Virus record (IMG/VR): IMGVR_UViG_2537562192_000015
DNA length: 13,508 nucleotides
Reading direction: 5' to 3' (one strand)
Origin: a virus
Lineage: Duplodnaviria; Heunggongvirae; Uroviricota; Caudoviricetes
Position 1 is the stretch's first letter, and each line of letters starts with the position of its first letter. Shown here one piece after another: positions 1-3,000 of the stretch. The position numbers were made by a program.

Positions 1-3000
1 ATGCGTATAGGACAAAATCGTTTTTTGGGGGCTATACACATGTTGCTTTCAGACCTTGCTATCCGTCGCGCGAAGCCAAAAGAGAAAGCCTATACACTCA
101 ATGACGGCAACGGGCTTTCGTTACTCATTGAGCCGAACGGTTCGAAGGGCTGGCGATTGCGATACAGGTTTGCAGGCAAGCCCAAAATGTTGTCGCTGGG
201 TGTTTATCCTGAGGTGTCCCTTTCTGATGCCAGGACGGCAAGGGATGAAGCCAAAAGGCTTATCGCTGGTGGAGTTAATCCGAGTGAGGTCAGAAAGGCC
301 CAAAAGCGAGAACAGGCGAACAAATGCGGTAACACCTTTGAGGCGATCGCCCGTGAGTGGTATGAAAAACGCCTGGACAGATGGTCACAATCATATGCCG
401 CAGAGATGATTGATACGTTTGAGAAGGACGTATTCCCGTATATCGGCAGCAAACCGATAGCAGAAATAAAACCGATGGAATTGCTCGCGGTTCTCTCTCG
501 TCTTAATGACCGTGGCGCAACTGAAAAATTGCGTAAGGTTCGACAGCGATGTGGCGAAGTGTTCCGGTACGCAATAATTACCGGACGCGCTGAATATAAC
601 CCCGCTCCTGATCTGGCAAGCGCATTTGCACCACACAAGAAAGAGCATTACGCGTATCTGAAAGTTGATGAGCTACCGGAGTTTTTCCGCGTTTTTAATA
701 CGTACACCGGAAGCCAGATCGTCAAGCTGGGTATGCGATTGTTGATTCTTACAGGACTCCGCCCAGGTGAATTACGGCAGGCAGAGTGGCAGGAGATTGA
801 TTTTGATAATCGTCTGTGGGAAGTGCCGAAAGAACGAATGAAAATGCGCCGTCCTCATTGCGTGCCACTTTCAGAACAGGCGATCGCTATTCTGGAACAG
901 TTAAAACACATGACGGGGCAGTATCCGTTTATTTTCCCTGGTCGAATACAGCACAGTAAGCCGATGAGTGAAATGGCTATGAACGTGCTTATTCGTCGTA
1001 TTGGCTATGCAGGGCGCGTTACTGGTCATGGGTTCCGGCATACCATGAGTACGATTTTGCATGAGCAGGGTTATAACTCCGCGTGGATAGAAACGCAGCT
1101 GGCGCACGTCGATAAAAACTCGATCCGTGGCACATACAATCACGCGCAATACCTGGACGGACGGCAGGAGATGCTCCAGTGGTACGCCGACTATATGGAC
1201 TCACTGGAACAGGGCGGGAATGTGGTACATGGCAAGTTTGGAAAATGTGGATGACTGGTTGAGTATACAGTAGTAGACTTTGAGCGACTAAAAAGGCTGA
1301 TGCAAACCGAACTGGATCGGCCTTAACATTAGACCGCTTGAAGGGGGAGAATATGCCAATTGTGGAAAACATTCCTGACTTATCCCACTGGCGAACAGTA
1401 CAGGAGTTTTCTATCACCCAAGCCGCTTTATTGTTGGCCGGAATTGATCCTTATGATTACCCTACTCTTGAACATGCCAGAGATTATAAACATGAACGTT
1501 GGAAAATGGCATGGGGGTTGGCTAATGGAATGGTTACTGCAATTCGTCGTGGTGTATTAACTCCTGTGTGGATTGAATATTATCCTTTGTGGGAAGTACA
1601 AAGAGCATCCGGCACCCCCCGTACAGAGATACCAGATCGTTTGAAGAAAATATCCATGGACGAAACAATTATTACCCGTCATTCTTTACTTGAATGGGTA
1701 AGAAATGAGAGGGTCGATTATGTAAGACCTCCTCGCTCTATATCGGATAAGGAGATTAAGCCATCTAACCAATCAGTAATAATTGATGCTGAATCGCGCG
1801 TGATTAATTCTGAAGAAACAGTATTGCTGACTTATGGTCATAAGAGCGAAGGTCTTGAATATGTAGAAGACGCAATAAGAGAACTTTGGGCAACATATGA
1901 TCCAGATAATCAACAAACAGCCCCTACAAGAAATGATGTTGTTGAATACCTGAAAGGCAGGGGAGCGGGGCAGAACATGGCCGAGGCTGTAAACCTGATA
2001 CTACGCCCCACTGGCTTGCAGCAAGTTGGAAGAAGGAAAAGAAAAACAAATAGTTAAATAGTGCCCACCCTTCGTAAAAAAGGTGGCACTATTTGCTCAA
2101 AACTCTTTTGTTTATGGCGAGAAATCATAGTTAAGCGTGCGTTTTCTTTGCTTATTGATACTGGAATGGTGGCAGCATTATTAAAATAATAGTGGGCACT
2201 ATTCCATTGAAATAGTACCCACCATTAAAAATAGTACCCACCTATAAATATGTTTTCCTTTTATGCATCATTGTAGACGGTTATAGACGTTACGAGGATT
2301 GAATATGTCAAATAACTTACTTCGTCTTTCTGATGTTATGCGCCGTACTGGTTATGGTCGCGCTTGGATTTATCGCCTGATCAGCCTGGGGCGCTTCCCT
2401 AAACCTGTAAAAATTGGTTCCCGCTCCGTGGCTTTTATTGAAAGTGAAGTCGACGAATGGATTAACCAGCGTATTGATGCTTCTCGCAACAACGCCGCGT
2501 AATAATCTTTTGGGAGGGGGGTATTCTCCCCCAGCACTAAACCTGATCCGACAGCAGGAGTTTTCAATGAAACGTCCGAATATGCCCGTACAGGGGCAGG
2601 GCTTCATTCAGCCTGAAATCAGCCAGAACGATATATTGATTCGCCACAAAGCAGAGTCGCGTATTGATTCCCGCGTTATTTCTGAGCGAGCAGGAATACA
2701 ACACGAAAGTATCATTGCGACGATTAAATCTCATCAATCCAGATTGCGCGAGCTTGGCTCACTGCCTCGCCAGTCAGTCAAGGAATTAACCTATTTGAAA
2801 TCGGGAAAATCTGGCCGCAAGCGCGGTCGTCCTGAAATTAGTTATTTGCTGAATGAGCTACAGCTTGACTATCTGTTACGCGTTATCCGTGGGCGTGACG
2901 CAGAACGTATCAACCAGTTCAAGCTGGATGTTACGAAGGCATTCGCGAAGCATCGCGCCGCTGAACCAGTCCGTCGCGAATATCTGCCAGGCTATCACGA

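Follow-up and report, generated by a model that had tools for sequence, protein, structure and literature searches.

A repeat array between an uncharacterised gene and alpA in an Escherichia coli tRNA-Gly island, and a candidate protein to read it

In the phage-inducible chromosomal islands (PICI) of Gram-negative bacteria AlpA is the master activator and also activates its own promoter (PMC6092414; PMC11773190). In the islands characterised so far a helper phage induces alpA through an inducer that has not been identified, and no repressor encoded by the islands is known (PMC6092414; PMC11773190). The layout of such islands is zoned (integration, Bro, replication, late; PMC10111431), and the gene order of the element considered here agrees with it. 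This element is contained in the IMG/VR virus record IMGVR_UViG_2537562192_000015, a 13,508-nucleotide stretch of DNA (hereafter the window) that matches E. coli chromosomes at 99.9% identity. On these chromosomes the element lies at tRNA-Gly and adjoins actS; it is an E. coli tRNA-Gly island of phage-satellite-like character. An uncharacterised open reading frame (ORF; 1353-2057, + strand), which codes for a 234-residue WP_001123241-type protein annotated as hypothetical, is followed in it by an array of short repeats and then by alpA (2305-2502, + strand), the regulated gene, whose 65-residue product belongs to the Phage_AlpA/HTH_17 type. The sole constant companion of the array is this upstream ORF: the array is inherited with the ORF, and not with the integrase (Int), AlpA, Rha or the primase. 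From the sequence comparisons we propose, as a plausible but tentative interpretation, that the repeats are half-site operators for the ORF product, which would gate the alpA promoter.

The kind of system is familiar, in that regulators of mobile elements that act on an operator array at a switch gene are found in Stl/Rpr, lambda CI and AraC-like systems. As in the case of Stl of the Staphylococcus aureus pathogenicity islands (SaPI) and Rpr of the Gram-positive PICI, the candidate island regulator is encoded between int and the first gene of the excision/replication operon, combines a conserved DNA-binding module (putative here) with a highly variable region, would have lineage-specific operators, and would be expected to respond to a helper-phage protein. 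Unlike Stl, which is divergently transcribed, the ORF is co-directional with int and alpA; further differences from Stl/Rpr are that the domain is C-terminal and has no Pfam match, the helix-turn-helix models of that library included, that the controlled gene is the activator alpA, and that repression is here a prediction, to which positive control is an equally possible alternative. The lambda CI (OR/OL), P2 C and 186 CI systems likewise have multiple, cooperatively occupied operators (cooperativity being presumed here), two clusters capable of looping, and a specificity that defines immunity groups, but these proteins have different folds and their operators overlap the -10/-35 elements, which is uncertain in the present case. 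As an analogy of mechanism, AraC acting on araO2/I1/I2 offers two domains joined by a flexible linker, half-sites that occur in both orientations and at variable intervals, a distal site separated by about 200 bp from proximal direct repeats of which the last abuts or overlaps the -35 position, and the capacity to loop (off) as well as to activate (on); there is, however, no sequence or fold relationship with AraC, and the ORF protein has no known ligand.

Among islands and satellites, EcCICFT073 and EcCIMP1 share with the window int, alpA, Bro-type genes, the primase and PerC, and in them too alpA heads the operon and is the master switch. The papers describing them, however, mention no homolog of the ORF (EcCIMP1_002 is small and unrelated), and in contrast to their autoactivated promoters the array is not linked to the AlpA allele. 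The PLL promoter of P4, whose first gene is vis, is activated by delta/Ogr and repressed by Vis; here too an alpA/vis gene opens an operon that runs into a C4/CI immunity RNA and a primase, from a promoter without a good -35 element. The activator site of PLL differs from the array in being a TGT-N12-ACA dyad at about -55 that is bound by zinc-finger proteins, and P4 and the other phage records searched lack the ORF. What is new at the present locus is the candidate reader, a protein in an unannotated domain family, and a gene-operator-alpA cassette that is conserved across two proteobacterial classes.

The repeat array and the gene that accompanies it

A pattern search of the window finds four copies of the motif ATAGTRCCCACC that have no more than one mismatch, at 2058, 2191, 2212 and 2231. 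The first copy, S1 (ATAGTGCCCACC; 2058-2069, + strand), abuts the TAA stop codon of the ORF (2055-2057) and forms an inverted pair with S2 (2082-2092, - strand), which reads GGTGGCACTAT on the + strand, i.e. the motif minus one C, and is invisible to a gapless search because of this 1-nucleotide deletion. S3 (ATAGTGCCCACT, one mismatch; 2191-2202, - strand) is followed by S4 (2212-2223) and the promoter-proximal S5 (2231-2242), both ATAGTACCCACC on the + strand, and S5 in turn directly by TATAAA (2243-2248). A degenerate sixth copy (GGTGGCAGCAT; 2168-2178, - strand) has a position weight matrix score of 7.5, and two relatives (L004 and L066) have a good site at the equivalent position. Four copies with at most one mismatch and two degenerate copies are accordingly packed into 185 bp, as against a chance expectation, allowing two mismatches, of 1.4 matches over the full 13.5 kb of the window; the maximum for any 200-bp stretch of 2000 first-order Markov simulations was 2 such matches, compared with the 4 observed, and 0 of the 2000 reached four. 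The claim of the first-pass annotation that a motif is repeated in both orientations upstream of alpA is thereby borne out, as is the perfect palindrome AATAGTG-GG-CACTATT that it had noted around one copy (S3; 2188-2203).

The array recurs in related islands. Every copy is retained in L002, in which the intergenic region is 95.6% identical, and in L004, with 66% identity in the ORF and 65% in AlpA, diverged copies occupy the same positions. We mapped the sites with a position weight matrix that was seeded from the window copies alone and then refined on these regions, counting positions from the stop codon of the ORF: window-type loci have sites at -1, 20, (107), 130, 153 and 172, the L004 type at -1, 22, 43, 119, 141, 164 and 183, and L005-type loci at -1, 22, 88, 121 and 140. 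Between the ORF and alpA there are 8.6 sites per kb, versus 0.06 per kb in the remainder of the loci, an approximately 140-fold enrichment with which an independent regular-expression count agrees. Adjacent sites are 19-23 bp, or about two helical turns, apart in every enteric subtype, the first site lies no more than about 11 nucleotides from the ORF stop codon in nearly all relatives, and the site positions are kept in more than 15 distinct loci while the sites and their flanking sequence diverge. The abutment of the last site on a promoter box, as seen with S5, is found in all enteric relatives and also in beta-proteobacteria, where the box is CCTATTC. The core (G/A)T(G/A)CCCACC is common to E. 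coli, Pseudomonas and Spongiibacteraceae, and the last site of Pseudomonas-type loci is followed by a TTGATT-like hexamer. Among the beta-proteobacterial loci examined, most have an 8-mer of their own, repeated 2-4 times and usually starting 0-11 nucleotides past the stop codon (e.g. CCGCGCC, GGTTCGCG, CGA(A/C)CCA and GACCCCA). The search of related islands for the motif, which the first-pass annotation had suggested, hence reveals an array that is conserved in position and drifts in sequence. When IMG/VR was scanned for the exact pattern TAGTRCCCACCTATAWW, the outcome was 10 isolated chance matches, with no arrays and neither the ORF nor AlpA nearby.

Comparison of islands that differ in gene content separates the array from most of its neighbors. 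L003 occupies the same tRNA-Gly site and encodes an Int that is 98% identical, an AlpA that is identical from residue 8 onwards, and a DUF927 primase that is 44% identical; neither the ORF nor the array is present in it, and its alpA upstream region shares no k-mers above chance with that of the window. L004 has an unrelated primase and has kept the array. Rha is absent from L002, L004, L067 and L068, and islands that keep the array are among those without Rha. As L003, L004 and the islands without Rha break the association, the cognate binder is none of Int, AlpA, Rha/AntA and the primase, and all four were rejected on their presence and absence across L002, L003, L004, L067 and L068. The core of the earlier idea, an array of regulator sites controlling alpA, is upheld by the conserved positions, the spacing of about two turns and the enrichment of the sites. 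The binders named for it (AlpA, Rha and ribbon-helix-helix proteins) are not supported, given that an identical AlpA helix-turn-helix occurs without the array in L003 and the array occurs without Rha.

The linkage to the ORF gene family is, by contrast with these genes, exclusive. The intergenic DNA has matches in 27 E. coli genomes, and every one of these falls into one of the two island types that have the ORF, namely the window type and the L004 type. We examined 33 genome loci, 18 loci on viral contigs and 3 additional contigs from gamma- and beta-proteobacteria, and in each of the 50 sampled loci that extend past the gene, i.e. on contigs reaching far enough, an alpA-like gene lies 90-260 bp (524 bp in L032) downstream of the ORF or of a gene for its C-terminal domain. 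As the array always travels with the upstream ORF, the product of the latter is the likely switch controlling AlpA. The binding protein had been regarded as unknown in the first-pass annotation; inheritance of the array as a module with the 234-residue ORF points to a specific candidate which had not been considered there.

In its AlphaFold2 model (predicted local distance difference test score, pLDDT, 78.7) the ORF product has an N-terminal alpha/beta domain, a disordered linker (residues 139-161), a three-helix C-terminal domain and a basic GRRKRK tail. The conserved C-terminal domain (C-domain; residues 162-234, encoded by 1836-2054, + strand) is a putative DNA-binding domain, modelled as a three-helix, helix-turn-helix-like bundle with an Arg/Lys tail, and its third helix, NMAEAVNLILRP, is the putative recognition helix. 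Searches with the ORF and its two halves gave no Pfam, PHROG, NCBIfam or PDB-sequence match, for the halves even at E = 10. An AlpA/Xis-like N-terminal domain was also considered and dropped (probability 0.6% in an hhalign comparison of the ORF family with an AlpA alignment). We found 57 homologs of the ORF, across Enterobacterales, Pseudomonas and other gamma-proteobacteria, whereas the C-domain family, at E<=1e-3, is made up of about 245 clusters (50% identity); in the list of its 150 best hits the C-domain lies at or near the C-terminus, and almost all of these proteins have 57-385 residues. Neither tblastn with the ORF nor BLAST with the intergenic DNA produced a match in 50,697 phage records, and there is therefore no sign of operators shared with a helper phage. 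A literature search on the ORF protein accession, the EcCICFT073 inducer and the P4 Vis/PLL sites found nothing usable.

The motif diverges alongside the C-domain. In L054 and L055 an unrelated 230-residue N-terminus is joined to a C-domain that is 66% identical, and the same ATAGTGCCCAC motif is present. The beta-proteobacterial proteins share the C-domain only, with a different third helix, and are still encoded directly upstream of alpA; one of them (L027) is a stand-alone 79-residue version. The E. coli and Pseudomonas proteins have an identical putative recognition helix (NMAEAVNLILRP) and their loci the common core GTGCCCACC, with AlpA proteins that are only 35% identical. Where a Glu of the helix is changed to Lys or Arg (L066, L004), the sites lose the C at motif position 7. 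These comparisons suggest a correlation between recognition helix and motif, and the common denominator of the array-linked proteins is, to judge from their sequences, the C-terminal region of about 70 residues.

The other parts of these proteins vary greatly. The segment at 1566-1835 (ORF residues ~72-160) is hypervariable and mosaic even among relatives with 81-88% overall identity (the window protein and P0002 versus P0004), and such variability would fit a sensor surface under diversifying selection. Some beta-proteobacterial C-domain proteins, encoded at L024:3605-4207, L026:3596-4204 and L032:3695-4267, have long hydrophobic, membrane-helix-like N-terminal segments, and may be membrane-tethered variants of the regulator.

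Proposed control of the alpA promoter and alternative explanations

The sign of regulation depends on the location of the alpA -10 element. The TATAAATAT box (2243-2251, + strand), which could be either the -10 element or an element at the -35 position, is invariant in five window-type and L004-type sequences. The sixth hexamer position is strongly conserved as T in -10 elements; TATAAA has an A there, and a consensus scan called no promoter at this point. An alternative -10 candidate, CATCAT (2266-2271, + strand), begins 17 bp after TATAAA; its second base is A and its sixth T, and both are retained in the corresponding box of every enteric relative. The relatives have a better conserved -10-like box 16-18 bp downstream of their TATAAA equivalent. 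In nine L005-type loci it is a conserved extended -10 element, TGnAAYTAT (TGn[A/G]A[C/T/A]TAT), placed exactly 17 bp past the box across a spacer whose sequence is not conserved. In L048 the TATAAA equivalent is replaced by TTTTTT, and therefore cannot be a -10 element in that locus. About half of the beta-proteobacterial loci have an AT-rich -10-like box 21-24 nucleotides past the CTATTC box. The comparative analysis thus favors the downstream box in L005-type loci, and both boxes are possible in the window. That the last copy abuts TATAAAT, as was pointed out earlier, is correct; the role of TATAAAT as the alpA -10 element is doubtful, since the downstream box is the better conserved one in relatives. 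As a separate observation, the CCTATTC box that abuts the last repeat in the beta-proteobacterial loci L017-L037 is 18-fold enriched 60-150 nucleotides past the ORF stop codon.

If TATAAA is the -10 element, S5 fills the spacer and S4 covers the -35 region, which is the layout of a repressor. Under the operator interpretation, the steps that we infer, namely binding, cooperativity, looping, the sign of regulation and the inducing signal, could fit together as follows. The three-helix C-domain and its basic tail would recognise AAATAGTRCCCACC and then the AT-rich flank. Two clusters of sites would be occupied: a distal pair, S1/S2, at the stop codon of the regulator's own gene, and a proximal set, S3-S5 with one decayed site, which ends at the alpA core promoter. 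The spacing of 19-23 bp would place bound proteins on one face of the helix, so that cooperative binding is possible, and a DNA loop could bridge the two clusters, which are about 110-130 bp apart. Occupancy of the proximal sites would gate the access of RNA polymerase to the alpA promoter, and hence the whole alpA-Rha-AntA-primase operon that starts excision and replication. In the version that we prefer, the ORF protein would keep alpA off in the quiescent island, with the distal pair S1/S2 also blocking read-through from int and the ORF, until a helper-phage signal, received by the variable N-terminal and middle region, releases the protein or changes its arrangement; AlpA may then reinforce its own expression, as has been shown for other islands. 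Repression in the quiescent state is only slightly preferred over positive or dual control.

Several considerations weigh against this interpretation. If CATCAT is the -10 element, all sites lie upstream of the -35 position, centred at -41.5, -60.5 and -81.5; this layout would be typical of activators and not of repressors, and together with the distal pair and the linker it would recall AraC. The alpA promoter looks weak under either choice of -10 element, which is also compatible with positive control. The link between the protein and the array is purely correlative, and the match of helix and motif is imperfect, as L067 combines an NMAEAV helix with GGTCAC-type distal sites. Moreover, the orientation and spacing of the sites differ between subfamilies, and either a flexible protein or monomeric binding is therefore required.

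The strongest of the alternatives, although we consider it unlikely, retains the same protein and the same sites and reverses the sign of control. The ORF product would then bind at -41.5, -60.5 and -81.5 of a promoter without a -35 element and act there as a class II/class I-type activator; like AraC, it might alternate between a loop joining distal and proximal sites (off) and occupancy of neighboring proximal sites (on). Promoter comparisons speak in its favor: the extended -10 element at a fixed 17 bp in the nine L005-type loci, the TTTTTT of L048, the lack of T6 in TATAAA as against A2 and T6 in CATCAT, the AT-rich box in about half of the beta-proteobacterial loci, and the TTGATT-like hexamer after the last site in Pseudomonas-type loci; the two domains and the disordered linker predicted by the model would also suit it. 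However, an activator gene that lies next to int and has no visible control of its own would switch the island on constitutively unless its activity were gated, the stand-alone C-domain proteins of 57-83 residues present no obvious activation surface, and simple activation needs no distal pair some 190-220 bp upstream.

It is quite improbable that the sites are read by a trans-acting factor encoded elsewhere, be it a regulator from the helper phage (activator or repressor) or a conserved protein of the host, with the ORF merely linked to them. DNA binding by the ORF product is itself only putative, and a helper phage does switch on the alpA promoters of characterised islands (PMC6092414; PMC11773190). 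Yet the motif differs between lineages in step with the adjacent C-domain, and this makes a conserved host factor a poor explanation, while helper phages shared by E. coli, Pseudomonas and Spongiibacteraceae, all of which have the GTGCCCACC core, seem unlikely. The phage records searched contain no similar DNA and no homolog of the ORF. In addition, the first site abuts the ORF stop codon in nearly every locus, which indicates a single gene-plus-operator cassette.

AlpA itself could be the reader, given that AlpA/Xis-type winged-helix proteins typically bind repeat arrays, and the sites would in that case be autoregulatory. AlpA activates its own promoter in EcCICFT073 and EcCIMP1 (PMC6092414; PMC11773190). 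The upstream region of L003, which lacks the array in front of an AlpA identical from residue 8, makes this very improbable for the window, as does the presence of the same motif core in E. coli and Pseudomonas despite an AlpA identity of about 35%.

The repeats might instead act as RNA or single-strand structures, i.e. as a terminator for int and the ORF, as hairpins in read-through transcripts, or as antisense terminators. The S1/S2 pair does fold into a hairpin at -20.8 kcal/mol (z = -3.4), and the minus-strand RNA is more stable (z = -6.4), with both of its hairpins (2056-2094 and 2187-2227) followed by T-rich runs. However, the length of the first-pair loop ranges from 7 to 17 nucleotides among relatives, there is no conserved U-tract on the + strand, a terminator scan of the window, L004 and L005 called no + strand terminator, and no minus-strand gene is annotated nearby in the window. 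Pairing also leaves unexplained the direct-repeat copies S4 and S5 and the fixed placement of the last copy against the promoter box, and we regard a role at the RNA level as highly improbable. The hairpin reported earlier after the stop codon thus exists, and is most simply a by-product of two inverted sites with a variable loop and no conserved U-tract. An Rfam covariance-model search of 1950-2400 gave no match at the gathering score and only noise at E<=1. On the minus strand, the hairpins at 2056-2094 and 2187-2227 look like terminators for antisense transcription.

That the repeats are replication iterons or arm-type sites of the integrase, as their 19-23 bp periodicity and the apparent resemblance of TGCCCACC to the P4 type I iteron, TGTTCACC, might suggest, is extremely improbable given that the array persists with a replaced primase in L004, is missing from L003 in spite of a homologous primase and a 98% identical Int, and is some 2 kb distant from the attachment end at tRNA-Gly.

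For one widespread subclass of islands, the operator interpretation names a particular DNA target and, as the probable reader of it, a specific protein family, and bears on the question of how Gram-negative phage satellites are kept silent and induced. If it holds, an orphan domain would gain a function, and a C-domain gene next to alpA would become a marker for finding satellites. It is possible, if on the unlikely side, that the ORF family is more generally the island-encoded gatekeeper of a large Gram-negative satellite/P4-like class, uniting a new DNA-binding domain, a helper-phage sensor and an AraC-style loop/class II activation switch; lineage-specific operators would in that case define satellite "immunity groups" across gamma- and beta-proteobacteria.

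Other features of the window and its relatives

The int gene is placed at 40-1254 (+ strand); the longest ORF starts from base 1 (1-1254), RefSeq places the start at base 40, and the alignment of the L003 ortholog begins at residue 14. Downstream of alpA follow the Rha and AntA/Icd-like genes, a C4 RNA and the DUF927 primase, and then the SSB, ProQ, PerC and Q genes. The C4 antisense RNA (the P1/P7/P4 CI-type immunity RNA) lies at 4893-4980 (+ strand; Rfam match of 72.9 bits), so that the island has, downstream of its AntA/Icd region, an RNA immunity element like that of P4. In that region, 3279-4745 (+ strand) is one 488-residue ORF that fuses an AntA N-terminus with an Icd-like C-terminus (PHROG 6196); its counterpart in L001, which is 99.9% identical to the window across 1300-2600, is annotated as several pseudogene fragments. 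In strain 08-00022 (L004:13-4571) the island stands in tandem behind another element that has a second integrase and a major capsid protein gene.

Several elements are also visible in the leader of alpA, whose Shine-Dalgarno sequence in the window is GAGG (2294-2297). At L005:4880-4936, with counterparts in L006, L007, L044, L046, L050, L054 and L068, the 5' untranslated region contains a conserved inverted repeat, CTCGTAA-N13-TTACGAG(G); as its 3' arm holds the alpA Shine-Dalgarno sequence, it may control translation or be a second operator. The window has at 2271-2289 a direct repeat, TTGTAGACG/TTATAGACG, instead of that inverted repeat. In the beta-proteobacterial loci L017-L037 a conserved CCATGTTCAACAAC is situated just upstream of the alpA ribosome-binding site.

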